Shown one piece after another: positions 1,119 to 6,855 of a stretch of DNA of 8,938 nt. The stretch is from a virus: the IMG/VR virus record IMGVR_UViG_3300009774_000005; one strand, 5' to 3'. The position numbers and the translations under genes were made by a program. Each line of letters opens with the position of its first letter. Positions within the stretch are counted from its first letter, which is position 1. The notes under the pieces were generated by a model. That model was given only the letters and a program-made list of their open reading frames with translations, made no database searches and had not been told where the DNA came from.

Positions 1119-2465
1119 TTATGCGACAGCCGGGCAGCTATCAACCGAATAGGTGGCGTCAGTGCCGATGATTTTTTTCAGATTGAAAGAATTTTCAAAA
1201 CGCGTGAATGCAGCCGACATAGAACGTTTGATTTCGGCAGTAGAGAACTTACGCAAACGACCCGGGAGCTTTTGGTGTTCAAGGATTGACCACAGTTCGT
1301 CAAAGCCGAGAGATTGAATGGCAAGAGCCATAGTGGCCCCGGCAGTCTGACCAAACCAGCGCACGTTACGGGAGCATTCGGCCTCTACCGTTTCGATCTG
1401 GAGGCGTGGGATGCACTTGACGAGTTCAGGCATGACGATAGCGTCAGCCTTGAGCAGCATGGAGGCGTGCCAGTCAGAGGCACCGGCAAAGAAATCAGAC
1501 GGGCGACGCAGCATTTCAGACGACAAAACACGGTGTTTATTGCCGTAGCGCAATTCAATGCGGAGCCATTCCGAATTGAATGCTGCCCCGAAAAGTTGAT
1601 CACCTTTCTCATAAGCATTGGTGATTTTTCCCGACTCACGCGAGCCAATATAGATGGACCGATCATGGCCGTTTGCCCAGTCGCCAACCTGATTAAATTT
1701 CAGCTTTCGACCACCAACATTGCACAGACCATCGATGTAATCTTGCTTCATTTGCTCGACACCACCGACGACGCCATCAAAGAAATCAAGTGCCAAATCG
1801 CACCGGGTCAAGGTGCCGTCCAGATCATCACAAATATCGGCAATACGGATGCGCCAGCCAATATCCGCGAAGGTGCAGGCCATGCCGAAGAGGTTGACAT
1901 GAATGGAGTTCGCCTGCCCGTCCTGATGCGGGCTATTGCTGGAGGAAAGGTAACCAACCCAGCCGACTTCCTGCCCGTTGAGTTCAATCGACCAGCGAAA
2001 ACGGTAAAAATCAATGCCTTTTTTGGGTTCTGAGAAGACGGTAAAGCCTTTTCCAAGAGCGGTGGCAACCCGTTCCGCCAGTTCAAACGCTTCATTTCCG
2101 ACGATGAATTCTTCATCAGTTTGATCATAAATCGGCATGCGCCGAGCAGCATCCTGAAGCAAATATGACGGATCAAAAATCGATGCATCATGGTCCCGAT
2201 ACCGCGGATTGCGAATGTCCATGGCGAGGTTTTTCGGCAAGGGGAAAAGTGTGTCAATCGAGAGGGCAGCGACATTGCGCCGGATCACGCTAAAACGCAC
2301 CCAATCGATATGGACAGGGGTTTTAGAGGCTTGACGTTCAGCCAGTAAACGAAGCTTCACCACGTCACCGTCAACAACGAGAGCCGACCAGTAAGGCCGA
2401 TCAGGAGTGCCTTTTTGTTTAGCCACGGTGTGAAGCTCCAAAGAGGGCAGGAAGTGCCGCACCAT
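1119..2465 (-). CDS. Rolling-circle replication initiation protein (Rep_trans / RstA-like)
   Basis: Largest ORF in the window. Segments such as IDWVRFS, CDLALDFFDG, IYIGSRESGKITNAYEKG and WLRIELRYGNK resemble the phage/plasmid Rep_trans family as I recall it. The track start at 2507 is TTG. I use ATG 2465; GTG 2426 (GGAG 9 nt upstream, overlapping the stop of the 82-aa ORF) is an alternative. Confidence 0.8.
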   Translation of the reverse strand: MVRHFLPSLELHTVAKQKGTPDRPYWSALVVDGDVVKLRLLAERQASKTPVHIDWVRFSVIRRNVAALSIDTLFPLPKNLAMDIRNPRYRDHDASIFDPSYLLQDAARRMPIYDQTDEEFIVGNEAFELAERVATALGKGFTVFSEPKKGIDFYRFRWSIELNGQEVGWVGYLSSSNSPHQDGQANSIHVNLFGMACTFADIGWRIRIADICDDLDGTLTRCDLALDFFDGVVGGVEQMKQDYIDGLCNVGGRKLKFNQVGDWANGHDRSIYIGSRESGKITNAYEKGDQLFGAAFNSEWLRIELRYGNKHRVLSSEMLRRPSDFFAGASDWHASMLLKADAIVMPELVKCIPRLQIETVEAECSRNVRWFGQTAGATMALAIQSLGFDELWSILEHQKLPGRLRKFSTAEIKRSMSAAFTRFENSFNLKKIIGTDATYSVDSCPAVA

Positions 2466-2667
2466 GCCGAACGGGTAGAGGCTGAGAGGTTGTCCCCGTA
2501 TTACCAACGGGGTGCGCTTCGCGCGGACCAGCCGCCGCAGCCGCTACGCTTGCGCTCACGGCGGCTTGGGCCGCGCAAGCATTCATAGCCGCACAGCCAT
2601 TGCCGATAGATGAAATGAGCATGCCCATGCAATCAGGACGCGGAGTCGTGCAGAAAGAGCAGTTCAT
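2419..2667 (-). CDS. Doubtful 82-aa Cys/Ala-rich ORF overlapping a GC-rich hairpin region
   Basis: Its ATG 2667-2665 overlaps the TGA 2666-2664 of the upstream ORF (ATGA coupling), which favours coding. The product is low-complexity Ala-rich and the DNA carries nested GC hairpins (2530-2580), so it may be non-coding. Confidence 0.3.
   Translation of the reverse strand: MNCSFCTTPRPDCMGMLISSIGNGCAAMNACAAQAAVSASVAAAAAGPREAHPVGNTGTTSQPLPVRHGAALPALFGASHRG
2530..2580. other. GC-rich nested/alternative hairpins upstream of rep
   Basis: agccgccg (2530-2537) pairs perfectly with cggcggct (2559-2566). gcttg (2564-2568) pairs with caagc (2576-2580). Confidence 0.5.
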
Positions 2668-2867
2668 TCGACCACCTGAACAGAGTTGCAGCTAAAAAAA
2701 GCTGGCATATCGTGGTAACGACTGACATGCGAACGTGGATAACAAAGACCCAAACGAACCCTAGAAACCTGAAAACGCAGACCGTGCCACGACACCAGAG
2801 CGCCGCGTTTGACCAGCTTTGCGCCTGTCAGGTCGAAATTGCTTTTGCGAAGGGTTGCCATAGTCAT
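2664..2867 (-). CDS. Hypothetical basic 67-aa protein
   Basis: ATG 2867-2865 overlaps the TGA 2866-2864 of the MTase-like gene (ATGA). Product MTMATLRKSNFDLTGAKLVKRGALVSWHGLRFQVSRV... No motif recognised. Confidence 0.45.
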   Translation of the reverse strand: MTMATLRKSNFDLTGAKLVKRGALVSWHGLRFQVSRVRLGLCYPRSHVSRYHDMPAFFSCNSVQVVE

Positions 2868-3592
2868 GCACCAGCCCATGCGCGAAAAGCAGCACGTTTC
2901 GCACCGGCACCACTCACCAGCTCAGTGTTACACCGAGCCTGGGTCAACGTAACAGCAGCGACCGCTGGGTGTAACAACGGAGCCCGGCACTTGGCCGCAA
3001 TTTCAACCAAAAAACGGGCAAATCTTGGAGGGGTACGTTCCCGATCCGCAGGTGAAAGACGAAGGGTTCGACCTTCAGCTCGGTGTAACTGGACCGGAAT
3101 ATGAGGCACCTCAGAACAGGAAACGCCACAGATGTATAGCCAAGTGGGCTTGGGAGCTGCATGACCAAACCAACCCTGATCAACCAACAGCGTAAAACCG
3201 CCCCAAGCATCAACAGTGCCGACTGGAGGTAACAAAGCAGCAGCCCATAACTTTGAAGCAAACGGGTGTTCAAGCACACCGCCATAAGTGCGGATGCAAT
3301 CAACTGCGAAAAGACCTAATTCTTTTTCACCGACACGAGGCTTTGCCAGATGTGACAAACGACCCCAACCACGGCATGGAGGGTGCGCAACTACAGGATC
3401 AGGACCGATATAACTGCGGGCGTCACGAGGCGCATCCCACACGTCTGCTACCAGGTCGAAGTAACAAGAATCGGAACGAGCGAAAAGAACTGACACTCCA
3501 GGTCGGCGTAACTGAATGCCCCCCACCAGCCCCGCGCCGGAACCGCCAAGAACTGGCGCGGGTTTTTGTGCAGATGGAAAAAATTTGGACAT
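2864..3592 (-). CDS. Short C5-cytosine-methyltransferase-like protein (242 aa) with almost no target-recognition domain
   Basis: The track start 3643 is GTG; the first ATG is 3592-3590 (MSKFF...). Motifs appear in canonical C5-MTase order: Gly-rich loop GGSGAGLVGG; VVAHPPCRGWG (motif IV-like, Cys codon 3376-3374); LGLFAVDCIRTYGGVLEHP (V/VI-like, ENV replaced by EHP); GWFGHAAPKPTWLYICG (VIII-like, QxRxR arginines absent); LSPADRER (IX-like); TPPRFARFLVEIA (X-like). Confidence 0.6.
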   Translation of the reverse strand: MSKFFPSAQKPAPVLGGSGAGLVGGIQLRRPGVSVLFARSDSCYFDLVADVWDAPRDARSYIGPDPVVAHPPCRGWGRLSHLAKPRVGEKELGLFAVDCIRTYGGVLEHPFASKLWAAALLPPVGTVDAWGGFTLLVDQGWFGHAAPKPTWLYICGVSCSEVPHIPVQLHRAEGRTLRLSPADRERTPPRFARFLVEIAAKCRAPLLHPAVAAVTLTQARCNTELVSGAGAKRAAFRAWAGA

Positions 3593-3610
3593 TTGGCGGT
3601 TCTTAAATCG

Positions 3611-3714
3611 CCTACGTGTTGTAGGCAAACGAATAATAACCACACCTACAACGTGTAGTCAACTAGGTGCGTAAAATAAATACACCATGTAGGCATGAAT
3701 ACAACACGTAGGCA
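3611..3714. promoter_or_regulatory. Array of four operator-like sites, consensus (C/A)TAC-N5-GTAGG(CA)
   Basis: A 3611-3625 cctacgtgttgtagg. B 3645-3659 cctacaacgtgtagt. C 3679-3695 aatacaccatgtaggca. D 3698-3714 aatacaacacgtaggca. C and D are identical at 14/17 positions. All four lie in the 128-bp divergent intergenic region. Confidence 0.55.
3633..3662 (-). promoter_or_regulatory. Candidate sigma70-type promoter for the long minus-strand operon
   Basis: On the minus strand: TTGACT (3662-3657), an 18-nt spacer, then TATTAT (3638-3633). It lies about 40 nt upstream of the ATG at 3592. Operator-like site B fills the spacer and site A lies just downstream. Confidence 0.45.
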
Positions 3715-3720
3715 CCAAAT

Positions 3721-4047
3721 ATGCAAAACACAATGAATCTTTTGGATAGCGCACTTTCCCAAAAGCCCGCGCCGTTTTGGACAGAAAAATTAAAGCTATC
3801 AAGGAGTGCACTTCACACAGCAAAAACAAGAGGCCACCTAAGCCCAGCCATTGCCGGAGCGCTTGCCGAAGAACTTGGACAAGATTCGACCGAATGGATT
3901 GTGGTCGCCGCCCTGGAGTCAGAGCGGGACAGCGCCTGCAAAGAACGCATGATTAAAACGCTTGCAGGAAGGATCAAAAGCCGAATCGAATCACTTTACT
4001 TAATACTTGTTGACAGACGCCAACGACCCCGCTTTTCCACCCGGTGA
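3721..4047 (+). CDS. Candidate phage repressor (Cro/CI-type HTH-like), the only plus-strand gene
   Basis: ATG at 3721 (alternative 3733). The segment KLKLSRSALHTAKTRGHLSPAIAGALAEELG looks like a helix-turn-helix. The gene is transcribed divergently from the replication/structural operon, like rstR-type repressors. No clear SD. The last 52 nt overlap the recombinase 3' end. Confidence 0.5.
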   Translation: MQNTMNLLDSALSQKPAPFWTEKLKLSRSALHTAKTRGHLSPAIAGALAEELGQDSTEWIVVAALESERDSACKERMIKTLAGRIKSRIESLYLILVDRRQRPRFSTR

Positions 4048-4583
4048 ATCGAATCGCGCAACCCGGCTTCACTCATACCGAACATTTCACCCAAAATCTT
4101 GTGTTCAAACCCCCAACGCCACATTTTGGCAACTTCGATACATTCTTCAGGCGTTAAAGTCGGCTTTTTGCCCCAAGTCTGACCCCGAGCCCTTGCCGCA
4201 ATCTGCCCGGCCATGCAGCGCTCTCGGATCAATTCCCGCTCGAATTCAGCAAAAACCCCCAGTAGCTGGAGAAACATTCTGCCCTGCGGTGTGACCGTTT
4301 CAATTGATTCTGTCAACGATCTAAACCCGACATTCTTAGCCCGCAACTGTTCAAAAATACGGACGAAATGCGACATTGACCGGGCCAGTCGATCAATTTT
4401 GTAGACGCACAAAACATCCCCCGGCAACAAGACATTAGCTATCAAATGCTCCAAAACAGGACGCTTTTTAATGGCCGATTGTTTCTCTTCAAAAACCGAA
4501 TCAATCTCGTTTTTCCGAAAAGCGGCAAGCTGCAATTTTGTAGATTGTTCACTGGTGCTGACTCTGGCGTATCCGTAAATCAT
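3996..4583 (-). CDS. Small serine recombinase (resolvase/invertase family), 195 aa
   Basis: The track start 4625 is TTG. The true start is ATG 4583-4581, with SD AGGGGG 7 nt upstream. MIYGYARVSTSEQ contains the catalytic Ser motif. Also present: KIDRLARS, the E-helix-like VFAEFERELIRERCMAGQIAARARG, and a C-terminal HTH-like segment. Confidence 0.9.
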   Translation of the reverse strand: MIYGYARVSTSEQSTKLQLAAFRKNEIDSVFEEKQSAIKKRPVLEHLIANVLLPGDVLCVYKIDRLARSMSHFVRIFEQLRAKNVGFRSLTESIETVTPQGRMFLQLLGVFAEFERELIRERCMAGQIAARARGQTWGKKPTLTPEECIEVAKMWRWGFEHKILGEMFGMSEAGLRDSIHRVEKRGRWRLSTSIK

Positions 4584-4721
4584 TGTTTTACCCCCTGTTT
4601 TGAGGCTGAAATTTACATAATTCAAAAGGCGCTTAAGCCAAGAAATGGGAAATACCCCATGTTGCTAAATCGCTCAAATGTCACTGAAACAGATCCTGCG
4701 GCGACTATTGGCCTTCGGCAC

Positions 4722-4741
4722 ATGGGGGCGGCCACCCCCAT
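4722..4741. repeat. 20-bp GC-rich imperfect palindrome atgggggcggccacccccat
   Basis: 7-bp arms atggggg/cccccat around cggcca, in the 183-bp gap upstream of the recombinase gene. No T-run follows on either strand, so it is not a canonical terminator. Confidence 0.6.
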
Positions 4742-4808
4742 ACCCCCTAGCAGCCTCAAACCGGGTTAACGCTATTCGCTTCCCGGTCATCGTGAACAGC
4801 CGTATTTA

Positions 4809-5030
4809 TCAGGAAAGAGCTTTCCAGTTTTCAGCAAGTTCATGCAACCGATTCTCGAGTGCCACACGTACAGCACCCCACGGCTGCGACGAATCAAGCA
4901 AGTCAGGATTTTGGGAAATAAACAACTTGATCGTCGTGAAATCACACCACGTGAAATTTGCAATTTCCTCCTCTGACTCGTCTGAAGCCATAAGGGAAAT
5001 TTCAATTTCACGAAATTCTGAAGGTTTCAT
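4809..5030 (-). CDS. Hypothetical acidic 73-aa protein
   Basis: ATG 5030-5028, the first ORF after the AT-rich island and upstream of the recombinase. Weak SD (GAAAG). Preferred over the antisense 133-aa plus-strand ORF, whose Ser/Arg-rich composition looks like a shadow frame. Confidence 0.45.
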   Translation of the reverse strand: MKPSEFREIEISLMASDESEEEIANFTWCDFTTIKLFISQNPDLLDSSQPWGAVRVALENRLHELAENWKALS

Positions 5031-5085
5031 TTTTTGCTTTCAATCTGCTCTCGCATTGACTAAAGTTTCACCAAAATAACAAAAT

Positions 5086-5113
5086 CCAACCAGACACCAA
5101 CCACCCACCAACC
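5086..5113 (-). repeat. Three CCAACC (minus strand GGTTGG) repeats phased at exactly 11 bp
   Basis: CCAACC at 5086-5091, 5097-5102 and 5108-5113. The minus strand reads GGTTGGTGGGTGGTTGGTGTCTGGTTGG. Confidence 0.8.
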
Positions 5114-5230
5114 GGGTCTAAATAGGACTTTTTGCAACTTTCAAAATTAGGCAGAGAGTGGTTGACTAAATTAGTATGCTACTTATTTAGTAGCATCGAT
5201 AACAAAGATAACAACTTATGACTACAGTTA

Positions 5231-5253
5231 AATAAAAGATATTATCTTTTATT
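5231..5253 (-). terminator. AT-rich 23-bp palindrome just downstream of the RHH gene; possible operon-end terminator or protein-binding site
   Basis: aataaaagata-t-tatcttttatt has 11-nt arms. It lies 16 nt after the TAA at 5271-5269, at the end of the long minus-strand gene string. The stem is all A/T, so intrinsic-terminator strength is uncertain. Confidence 0.35.
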
Positions 5254-5268
5254 GTTAGTAGAAGTGAG

Positions 5269-5466
5269 TTAACGTTTTCTCAATAACTGAGAAGAAATGA
5301 GCTTAGAAATAACCTCGACTTTGGTCAGGTTCTTGAAACGCATAAACTCATTCAACGATTCAACCAGCTCACGCGGCAGATCGACAGACAGGGTTACCGT
5401 GTCGTTCTTAGCTCTGTGAGCAGCAACCCGCGCCGCTGGATCAGCATGTATTCGTTTGCGTGGCAT
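5269..5466 (-). CDS. Ribbon-helix-helix (CopG/Arc-like) DNA-binding protein, 65 aa
   Basis: ATG 5466-5464 with SD AAGGA 6 nt upstream. A basic N-tail is followed by a beta-strand-like VTLSVDL and two helix-like segments (PRELVESLNEFMRF, TKVEVISKLISSQL), matching the RHH layout. Confidence 0.65.
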   Translation of the reverse strand: MPRKRIHADPAARVAAHRAKNDTVTLSVDLPRELVESLNEFMRFKNLTKVEVISKLISSQLLRKR

Positions 5467-5509: not shown

Positions 5510-6568
5510 TCAACGATGCTTCGCCATGAAAGCGAAAACGTCAGCATCACCAGACGACCGCGACGGGTCAGGAAGTGAACGAATGCCGCTTATGTCGGCC
5601 TTTTGTCCTGGCACCGAGAAACCGAGAATATGGGACTCACAGAAACCGGCCTCCACCACCACCGCAACACCTTCAGAATCGAAGCAGCCGCATTTTTTCG
5701 GCGTGGAGATACATCCGGCCAACTTATGATCTAAAAGAGGCACAGAGGCCGACGCAGGCAACGGCGCGGAAGCAGCAGAAGCAGGAGGCAGCGCGGCAGA
5801 AACCACAACGACCGCAGGAGCAGACGCCACCGCTCGAGGTGCAGAGGCCGTAGAACTAATGCCCTTGCCCGTCATCGCGCCCTTCATGGTGCCGAAGGCA
5901 GCAGGTGCTACGAAAATCCCACCGATCACCGCCAGGACAGGGACCGCCAACCAGAGCGGAACCTTTTGCCTTTGCTTTGTGTGAAGCTGACTTGATTGGT
6001 AGAGCTTGTAAGCCGACTTGGGATAGAACCACTTGGACATGGTGGCGGTCCGGGTGCGGTTCACATCGACAGAGCAGCCATCCCAATCGTAGATAAGCGC
6101 AATCGCCATACCGAGCAAACGCCGGATGTTTTGATGCCGACCAACGAGCCGCCGAACATTCTGGTCGATCAACATGGGATTCTGCGTCAGGATGACGAAA
6201 TCAACGCCCATATGGCGATGAGTTTCGAGCGCCTGAATCATTTTTGGCGGCTTGGTTCCCATGCCACGCGGACGCCACCAGCGTTGAACTTCATCAATCA
6301 CGATCACGTCACCTGGGCGGCACCAGTCGAACCAGTTCCAGACGCCGTTACCTTCACCCGGAAGCCAAGCACCGTCTGATTGTTCGACACCTTCCGCCAT
6401 CAGTTCATGCGGAAGCAACAAGCCTGCGATGCCGTCAACGACCAAGCGCCGATTTAACTCTGATCCATCCTTTTGCTTGACCTTTTCAGCGACGAGCTTT
6501 TGAATGAGGGTTGACACCGCGTAGAGGCTTTTGCCGGAACCGGGAACGCCGGTAATGAGGTAAATCAT
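5510..6568 (-). CDS. Zot-like / pI-type morphogenesis ATPase, 352 aa
   Basis: MIYLITGVPGSGKS is a Walker A at the extreme N-terminus, as in the Zot family. VIVIDEVQ is Walker B-like. There is a mid-protein TM segment (VPLWLAVPVLAVIGGIFVAPAAF). The track start 6655 is GTG. ATG 6568-6566 overlaps the TAA of the upstream gene (TAATG). Confidence 0.9.
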   Translation of the reverse strand: MIYLITGVPGSGKSLYAVSTLIQKLVAEKVKQKDGSELNRRLVVDGIAGLLLPHELMAEGVEQSDGAWLPGEGNGVWNWFDWCRPGDVIVIDEVQRWWRPRGMGTKPPKMIQALETHRHMGVDFVILTQNPMLIDQNVRRLVGRHQNIRRLLGMAIALIYDWDGCSVDVNRTRTATMSKWFYPKSAYKLYQSSQLHTKQRQKVPLWLAVPVLAVIGGIFVAPAAFGTMKGAMTGKGISSTASAPRAVASAPAVVVVSAALPPASAASAPLPASASVPLLDHKLAGCISTPKKCGCFDSEGVAVVVEAGFCESHILGFSVPGQKADISGIRSLPDPSRSSGDADVFAFMAKHR

Positions 6569-6855
6569 TAGGAACCCACAATCCAACGCGTGGCACTTAC
6601 CGCAACCCACATGCCGACCCGCGCCACAAACGCACCAGCGATGATGCCGAGACACTGCGGAATAGCAGCAATAGAGGCCAGCGCGAGAACGTCAGAAGGC
6701 AGGCTAGACCAATTGGTAGTCGCCATATCAATCAGCGACTGCAAAGCCACAGTGACGCCGGTAAACGTCATGGTGCCAATGCCCAAAATCGTCAAGATGC
6801 GCAGGACCATAGGCCCAACCATCGTGAGTAAAAAAGAGGCAAGAGTAACGCCCAT
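6568..6855 (-). CDS. pVI-like minor coat/membrane protein, 95 aa
   Basis: ATG 6855-6853 lies 3 nt after the pIII-like stop, with AAGG upstream. The protein is strongly hydrophobic with several predicted TM stretches. It sits between the adsorption protein and Zot, as gene VI does. Confidence 0.6.
   Translation of the reverse strand: MGVTLASFLLTMVGPMVLRILTILGIGTMTFTGVTVALQSLIDMATTNWSSLPSDVLALASIAAIPQCLGIIAGAFVARVGMWVAVSATRWIVGS

Follow-up and report, generated by a model that had tools for sequence, protein, structure and literature searches.

What is a gene that resembles a DNA cytosine-5 methyltransferase (C5-MTase), with hardly any room for a target-recognition domain (TRD), doing at the head of the replication genes of a single-stranded DNA (ssDNA) phage? 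The question is raised by the IMG/VR virus record IMGVR_UViG_3300009774_000005, an inovirus-type genome, in which a stretch of 8,938 nucleotides (hereafter the window, meaning the whole of the DNA that was analysed) carries on its minus strand an open reading frame (ORF) for a protein of 242 amino acids (aa; Table 1). An earlier note, made from the letters of the sequence, had proposed for this protein a C5-MTase fold with a nearly missing TRD and had doubted that it is a standard orphan methylase. In our best reading, its core of ~165-170 residues is a drastically reduced, stand-alone descendant of the DNA C5-MTase superfamily. For the function we favour, at about even odds (a probability of roughly 0.5), a stand-alone, C5-methylase-derived DNA-modifying enzyme of low specificity whose C5 methylation would protect the phage DNA.

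The family and its predicted fold

The ORF is a real and conserved gene, as the earlier note had assumed. Homologues of its product number 2767 in a set of 5.8 billion proteins, and a profile search of 1.84 billion representatives returned 2177 clusters (formed at 50% identity) at E<=1e-3, 696 of them at E<=1e-30; in addition, the identical 242-aa protein is called on a metagenome contig. The family occurs in inoviruses, microviruses and tailed phages of Pseudomonas, Caulobacter, Ralstonia and Xanthomonas and is present in more than 580 IMG/VR contigs, its members being mostly 150-300 aa long (median 205 in 376 members; very small ones have 152-180 aa). The window protein matches phrog_12600, which has no annotated function, at E=8e-56 over residues 33-174, and what is added here to that entry is the fold, the active-site residues, the family size and the genomic context. 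A literature search on the family in inoviruses, microviruses and Casadabanvirus turned up a single annotation, that of Gp8 of the Rhodobacter microvirus Ebor; the family is a very large one that has been noticed once in the literature, has never been characterised and is unusually reduced.

Searches of Pfam, NCBIfam, PADLOC and the PDB sequences with the protein and with alignments of 56 and 132 members yielded nothing relevant, and the sole PDB sequence "hits", to designed helical-repeat proteins, were dismissed because they matched the low-complexity tail. A chance resemblance of motifs, or a frame that is not a gene at all, would account for this silence of the databases, but it is excluded by the number of homologues, by residues that are invariant across phage types and by a confident, reproducible fold with its structural matches.

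The fold was predicted in two independent models. For the window protein, AlphaFold2 with the 56-sequence alignment gave a predicted local distance difference test (pLDDT) score of 86, with values above 90 in the core (residues 31-200) and both tails poorly ordered; the second model, of the 163-aa Ebor Gp8 (P0121), reached a pLDDT of 94.8 (~95) and a predicted template modelling (pTM) score of 0.90. When the window model was compared with the PDB by Foldseek, the top 50 matches were all catalytic domains of C5 DNA methyltransferases, among them DNMT3B, DNMT3A, DNMT1, DIM2 and ZMET2 (best E=4.5e-4, probability up to 1.0). The Ebor Gp8 model likewise matched C5-MTases only, now including M.HaeIII and M.HhaI, with 22 matches at E<=1e-3 and template modelling scores (TMq) of 0.42-0.53, and a search of a viral structure library returned many matches labelled "cytosine-specific methyltransferase". 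The C5-MTase fold put forward in the earlier note is supported by these predicted structures, whose matches fell within the C5-MTases, and not by sequence profiles.

Retained catalytic residues and a reduced cofactor lobe

The canonical motif order described in the earlier note holds for the peptides resembling motifs IV, VI, VIII and IX/X, which are conserved far beyond chance, and breaks down at motif I. HPPC, LEHP, GWFGHAAPKPTWLYICG, LSPADRER and TPPRFARFLVEIA follow one another in this order in the 242-aa protein, and their patterns recur throughout the family (motif patterns were counted in 376 members, conservation in 132 diverse members): HPPC and E[HQ]PxxS are each found in 374, GHxAxKxT in 364 and RxxTP in 360. 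P71, P72, C73, G105, E108, P110, S113 and K148 are invariant, and ~27 further positions are conserved in at least 90% of members. For the register of the motifs, the family was aligned with C5-MTases by hhalign, the results of which served this end only and not as proof of homology; numbering followed M.HhaI, the sequence of which was checked against the PDB, and an hhalign comparison with one Dcm sequence was dismissed as meaningless.

The Pro-Cys of motif IV, correctly expected to be retained, is thus P72/C73, and in hhalign the PC of HPPC falls on that of GFPCQ in motif IV of M.HhaI. The further expectation that residues used in catalysis are changed holds for the motif VI equivalent in so far as ENV has become EHP in the family (H109 in 129 of 132 members), yet the critical glutamate, E108, is invariant. 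In the motif VIII/beta7 equivalent, FGHxAxKxTWLYIVG was aligned with YGvPQxRERvFIVG; Q139, G143, H144 and T150 are near-invariant there beside the invariant K148, and from the aligned segment GHxAxKxTW the arginines of QxRxR are gone, as had been observed. From motif VIII to motif X, family members have 41 residues at the median, whereas 67 phage C5-MTases have a median of 183 and never fewer than 94; this bears out the near-absence of a TRD, although the gap in the window protein measures 22 residues and not the 19 first counted. In the merged motif IX/X equivalent that follows, R184, T187, P188, A192 and L195 are near-invariant.

A mechanism for the favoured reading can be drawn from these residues. 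The nucleophilic attack on C6 of a flipped-out cytosine would come from C73, in the PPCxxW(G/S) form of motif IV, and E108, in the motif VI equivalent, would protonate N3. Since a TRD is missing, little or no sequence specificity is to be expected, and the enzyme might bind ssDNA or replicative-form DNA. As the product of the first gene in a repressor-controlled early operon, just ahead of the replication initiator gene rep, it would act once phage replication starts, and C5 methylation of the phage DNA with S-adenosylmethionine (SAM) from the host would shield the replicative form and the progeny strands from restriction. What is inferred in this reading, beyond the fold and the retained residues, is that the enzyme acts on DNA, takes SAM as its cofactor, transfers a methyl group and counters restriction.

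The cofactor side of the protein bears directly on the question of SAM. The Gly-rich SAM loop that the earlier note had recognised in GGSGAGLVGG (residues 16-25) was rejected as motif I: it sits before beta1 (residues 34-36) in a disordered extension of low confidence that appears as a gap in ~100 of the 132 members. No more than 12 residues precede beta1 in 78 of the 132, GxGxG occurs upstream of beta1 in only 5, and many homologues begin at the equivalent of V33. At the true motif I position, L36 and Y44 are each found in 130 of 132 members and S42 in 118, residue 37 is F or Y, and FxGxG is present in just 25 of the 376 members; with no glycine at this position, SAM binding is not to be assumed from the sequence. 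The second strand leads into a cluster of acidic and basic residues with D53 in 122, R56 in 130 and A58 in 129 of 132 members. This cluster is a candidate remnant of the ribose- or adenine-binding acid of motif II/III; the near-invariant D53 stands after the second strand, at the position classically used for ribose binding, and hhalign placed D50, weakly, on D60 in motif III of M.HhaI. The family has lost not only the TRD but also half of the lobe that binds the cofactor.

Several observations weigh against a DNA C5-methylase. There are no matches to PF00145, even at E<=1, for the window protein and the 132 diverse members, which by sequence criteria agrees with the view of the earlier note that this is not a standard orphan methylase, and the hhalign scores of the family are marginal (E 0.06 with a profile of 8 C5-MTase sequences, E=0.044 with one of 81). 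The motif I position has no conserved glycine, beta1 and beta4 are separated by a single strand as opposed to two in canonical enzymes, and the spacing from beta1 to the Pro-Cys is 36 residues, the median for 67-81 phage C5-MTases being 68. The two arginines of motif VIII, which normally hold the cytosine O2 and a phosphate, are both replaced (by P149/W151 or, in an alternative register, K148/T150), and the GN(S/A)V of motif X has given way to RExTP (R184-E185-x-T187-P188), with GN[SA]V left in 2 of 376 members. Furthermore, the published HHpred match of Ebor Gp8 leaves out the N-terminal 36 residues, and only 1.58% of cytosine calls in Ebor DNA were 5-methylcytosine (5mC), with no methylation that its authors could attribute to Gp8 (PMC11980548), which, for Ebor at least, speaks against extensive C5 methylation without specificity.

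The same low 5mC level would fit a C5-MTase-derived enzyme that does not use SAM, a reading that we hold to be possible but doubtful. Here the Cys/Glu pair would activate a pyrimidine beside a rebuilt polar, His-rich pocket, made up of R39, D41, S42, Y44, D53, R56, R184 and E185 with the near-invariant H70, H109 and H144, and the outcome would be some other DNA chemistry, whether with another group or one-carbon donor, by deamination or exchange at C5/C4, or in a metal-assisted reaction. It is consistent with this that the SAM-contacting motifs I, II/III and X are all replaced family-wide while the base-activating residues are invariant, that the N-terminal half has half the normal length besides lacking a strand, and that the homology detected by HHpred and hhalign begins only at motif IV; canonical C5-MTases, when deprived of SAM, catalyse deamination as well as addition and removal of aldehydes at C5. 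However, D53 occupies a hallmark position of Rossmann methyltransferases, the LF of motif I is retained, the fusion partners and neighbours described below are ordinary SAM-dependent DNA methylases, and accessory biosynthetic genes for an alternative donor are absent from ssDNA phage genomes of 5-9 kb. To our knowledge, there is also no SAM-independent natural member of the C5-MTase fold.

A proposal that covers both kinds of chemistry is put forward tentatively: among self-sufficient DNA enzymes that activate pyrimidines at C5, this family, at ~160 residues, may be the smallest known, deployed by ssDNA phages at the onset of rolling-circle replication. It would then be either a cytosine-5 methylase independent of sequence (or directed at ssDNA or the replicative form), with SAM bound in a glycine-free pocket new to the superfamily, or a SAM-independent Cys/Glu enzyme whose rebuilt polar, His-rich pocket makes a new DNA modification.

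Position in the early operon and neighbours in other phages

The gene heads an operator-controlled operon, a claim of the earlier note that stands: a promoter-like site and four palindromes lie beside a divergent gene for a repressor-like protein, which has weaker matches to transcriptional repressor families besides the one given in Table 1. The palindromes between this gene and the early operon form a compact genetic switch; direct and inverted repeat families (D1-D3 and I1-I6) were found in the region, one 14-nt pair being 100% complementary. The promoter consensus scan gave one site where 0.9 were expected. The position of the methylase-like gene at the head of a repressor-controlled early/replication operon is supported. 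Downstream, two ATGA stop/start overlaps (2867-2864 and 2667-2664) form a chain through ORFs of 67 and 82 aa into rep, the start of which is ambiguous (TTG at 2507, ATG at 2465 or GTG at 2426; the gene caller chose a 435-aa version). The overlaps exist as had been described, but the two small ORFs are only putative: homologues of both are absent from 85 related loci, a PHROG match was sought and not found for either, and between the methylase-like gene and rep the relatives have no ORF or an unrelated one of 88 aa.

Apart from the window, the gene lies directly upstream of rep, which it usually overlaps by 4 bp, in Acidovorax and Variovorax inovirus prophages, in metagenomic inoviruses and in Xanthomonas phage fSU1, so that the placement for which the earlier note had proposed a survey of inoviruses is found again in them. 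The initiators at inovirus loci belong to Rep_trans, REP_ORF2-G2P or Phage_CRI, the gene precedes VP4/A in microviruses, and across both groups of phages the arrangement spans five different Rep families. A comparison of the window with loci L014, L015, L016, L178, L001 and L006, from close relatives, shows the methylase-like gene in the same slot next to initiators of different families, and such a change of Rep family beside a conserved accessory gene clearly exemplifies the modular replacement of Rep. In tailed phages the gene stands ahead of primase, prim-pol or terminase genes, and its neighbours there also include NinB/NinG, N6_N4_Mtase, Dam methylases, Tad2-like and NADAR genes. Rare fusions carry a Dam-type N6-adenine methylase at the N-terminus (P0286, P0297) or a ParB-like domain at the C-terminus (P0245), and these fusion proteins match phrog_12600 at E=1e-46 to 1e-67.

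In the window and at the prophage and viral loci that were inspected, no restriction endonuclease gene adjoins the methylase-like gene. Nor did a conserved partner gene emerge from the survey of neighbours, in which 102 of 153 flanking ORFs were singletons and the largest cluster was Rep_trans, and a candidate for a partner subunit is absent from microvirus genomes of ~6.5 kb. The idea of a partner subunit or cognate restriction enzyme was rejected on this survey, and because neither adjoins the gene, it is regarded as an orphan, self-sufficient unit. The context is that of an accessory gene, self-sufficient and expressed early, which keeps company with genes for DNA modification and anti-defence; it does not resemble that of a cofactor dedicated to a single Rep family. 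The balance of the wider evidence is towards a role in DNA modification or anti-restriction rather than a Rep-specific one, since the same gene is found among methylases and anti-defence genes in tailed phages, is fused to Dam and ParB domains and comes without partner or restriction gene.

The C-terminal tail of the window protein ends in a helix (residues 229-241; 2867-2905) with a pLDDT of ~71-79 that is conserved in the inovirus subclade only, following a linker of very variable length, and this helix could make contact with another protein, Rep or a component of the virion machinery for instance. As an observation of its own, the coding region of the linker contains a 13-nt inverted repeat (2926-2938/2964-2976; TGTTACACCGAGC / GCTGGGTGTAACA), and relatives differ in the number of "AVT" (GCn-GTn-ACn) units in the linker, which suggests a DNA-level repeat embedded in the coding sequence. 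A reading of the inverted repeat as hairpin or origin was not supported thermodynamically (z = -0.38), and no enrichment of GGTGTAACA was seen in the window.

A contact of the C-terminal helix with Rep would suit a replication accessory factor that binds the phage DNA, possibly covalently through C73 at the origin or on ssDNA, and assists or regulates the rolling-circle initiator to which it is translationally coupled. The place directly upstream of rep, often with overlap and whatever the Rep family (Rep_trans, REP_ORF2-G2P, Phage_CRI or VP4/A), and that upstream of primase or prim-pol genes in some tailed phages point the same way. This very indifference to the Rep family speaks against a specific protein partnership, however, and the sporadic occurrence of the gene in microviruses (PMC11980548) and inoviruses marks it as accessory and not required for replication. 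In addition, many of its neighbours in tailed phages (terminase, NinG, methylases, anti-defence genes) are not replication genes, most flanking ORFs are the singletons mentioned above, and the invariant catalytic residues indicate turnover chemistry. A replication accessory factor is accordingly judged unlikely.

Very improbable, in our view, is a substrate other than DNA, such as free deoxycytidine nucleotides or RNA, for which DNMT2, an enzyme that modifies tRNA, would be the analogue. The absence of a DNA-recognition domain, the loss of the phosphate-contacting arginines of motif VIII and the very small size of members of 152-180 aa would be in keeping with it. Yet the structural neighbours are all DNA enzymes, the fusions join the family to a DNA methylase and to the DNA-binding ParB, the ssDNA phages lack a nucleotide kinase and any other genes by which a modified nucleotide would have to be channelled, and the invariant basic residues R56, K148 and R184 could stand in for the lost DNA contacts.

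Table 1. Coordinates of the methylase-like gene, its parts and other features of the window
Feature	Position	Strand	Basis or remark
Complete ORF, 242 aa + stop, minimal C5-methyltransferase-like protein	2864..3592	minus	ORF list
Non-conserved disordered N-terminal extension, residues 1-32	3497..3592	minus	pLDDT block means 59/53/68; residues 16-20 <50
Conserved catalytic core, residues 33-202, C5-MTase-like Rossmann fold, six strands	2987..3496	minus	pLDDT >90, Foldseek, conservation
beta1 and motif I position, residues 33-44, VSVLFARSDSCY, LFxRxDSxY	3461..3496	minus	conservation table
Second strand, acidic/basic cluster VWDAPRDAR, residues 51-59	3416..3442	minus	D53, R56, A58 near-invariant
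Motif IV with catalytic Pro-Cys (C73), residues 67-79, VVAHPPCRGWGRL	3356..3394	minus	invariance, hhalign
Motif VI equivalent, GGVLEHPFAS, residues 104-113, on beta5 (strand 105-110)	3254..3283	minus	E108 invariant
Motif VIII/beta7 equivalent, residues 139-156, QGWFGHAAPKPTWLYICG	3125..3178	minus	hhalign, conservation
22-residue linker in place of TRD, residues 157-178	3059..3124	minus	P163 119/132, P166 101/132
Merged motif IX/X equivalent, residues 179-200, LSPADRERTPPRFARFLVEIAA, short helix and C-terminal core helix	2993..3058	minus	helices 181-185, 189-200
Subclade-specific C-terminal tail, residues 203-242, variable linker and helix KRAAF(K/R)AWA	2867..2986	minus	close inovirus relatives only
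Small ORF, 67 aa, putative	2664..2867	minus	ATGA overlap; also called by gene caller on the metagenome contig with the identical methylase-like protein
Second small ORF, 82 aa, Ala-rich, putative	2419..2667	minus	ATGA-coupled; overlaps rep start
Rep_trans rolling-circle replication initiator	1119..2507	minus	PF02486 E=1e-20; phrog_453 E=4e-59
Four operator-like palindromic repeats, CCTACAACGTGTAGG family (consensus approximate)	3610..3713		between methylase-like gene and divergent repressor gene
Promoter-like sigma-70 match TTGACT-18-TATTAT	3633..3662	minus	consensus scan, 10/12 matched; weak alone
Repressor-like DNA-binding protein, 108 aa	3721..4047	plus, divergent	phrog_31301 DNA-binding protein E=7e-33
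Serine recombinase	3996-4625		3' end overlaps repressor-like gene
Zot/pI ATPase	5510-6655	minus	

The other minus-strand genes of the window encode an ssDNA-binding-like protein, coat and adsorption proteins and a DUF2523 protein. The repressor-like gene and the serine recombinase gene are convergent, their 3' ends sharing 52 nt (3996-4047). A stretch of ~640 nt at 4625-5269 is AT-rich (GC ~0.40 as compared with 0.50-0.58 elsewhere), holds no convincing gene and has one inverted repeat at 4950-4969/4993-5012 and another at 5165-5176/5180-5191; it might serve as attP, packaging signal or origin. Scans of the window for tRNA and Rfam elements found none, and a megablast comparison of the whole window with 50,697 phage records gave no match.

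Significance and comparison with known systems

If the protein is active, a minimal C5-methylase-like catalyst without recognition domain would define how small a functional core can be in a superfamily that has been studied intensively. A non-specific cytosine methylase, should it prove to be one, would be a tool for footprinting and for mapping chromatin accessibility, as the cytosine counterpart of the adenine methylase M.EcoGII, and would explain how tiny ssDNA phages such as microviruses and inoviruses evade restriction with one gene of ~500 nt; if SAM is not used, it would be the first natural case of the C5-MTase fold being repurposed for other DNA chemistry. Either way, more than 2000 unannotated sequence clusters across phage types could receive an annotation and be put to a direct test.

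With the C5-MTases of PF00145, such as M.HhaI and M.HaeIII, the family shares the fold of the catalytic domain, the order of motifs IV, VI, VIII and IX/X, and both the catalytic cysteine of the motif IV Pro-Cys and the glutamate of motif VI; its PPCxxW(G/S) closely resembles what we take to be the M.HaeIII/DNMT1 form of motif IV. It departs from them in five defining features, namely the profile match, motif I, motif VIII, the TRD and motif X, and therefore is not filed as an ordinary member. Where C5-MTases have at least 94 residues in the place of the TRD, the family has ~22-41, its cofactor half is about half as long with one strand fewer, and its core of ~165 aa compares with at least 269 aa in the phage C5-MTase set. 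In contrast to the methylases of restriction-modification systems, no cognate endonuclease was found next door in the window and the loci examined, and in contrast to split C5-MTases of the two-subunit M.AquI type, no conserved adjacent gene with the missing motifs was found.

Both models find their best structural matches in the catalytic domains of DNMT3A and DNMT3B (E 1e-4 to 5e-4, probability 1.0, TMq up to 0.53), and among canonical enzymes it is these that have the smallest TRD. The DNMT3 enzymes have all ten motifs, bind SAM and form oligomers with DNMT3L or other DNMT3 subunits, whereas the identity of the window protein and Ebor models to them is only 12-18%, which does not imply a relation beyond the shared superfamily fold.

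Ebor Gp8, on the other hand, is a true homologue with 39% identity to the window protein (tblastn E=1e-26) and the same conserved residues, and its gene likewise lies directly upstream of the replication initiator. It consists of the bare core of 163 aa, to which the window protein adds the 32-residue disordered N-terminus and the 40-residue C-terminal tail. The name given to Gp8 goes back to UniProt Q67472, presumably the DNA methyltransferase of frog virus 3. Gp8 was annotated as a "putative DNA methylase" on the strength of one HHpred match, to this entry ("probable DNA methylase", E=2.3e-8, residues 37-160), and its authors could not tell whether it methylates anything (PMC11980548).

Finally, M.EcoGII is a non-specific orphan adenine methylase of phage or prophage origin (PMC5778455). 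It is an N6-adenine methylase of the beta-class of amino-methyltransferases with canonical SAM motifs, unrelated to the present family in structure and sequence; as an orphan enzyme of mobile elements with little or no sequence specificity, it may nevertheless be a functional analogue.

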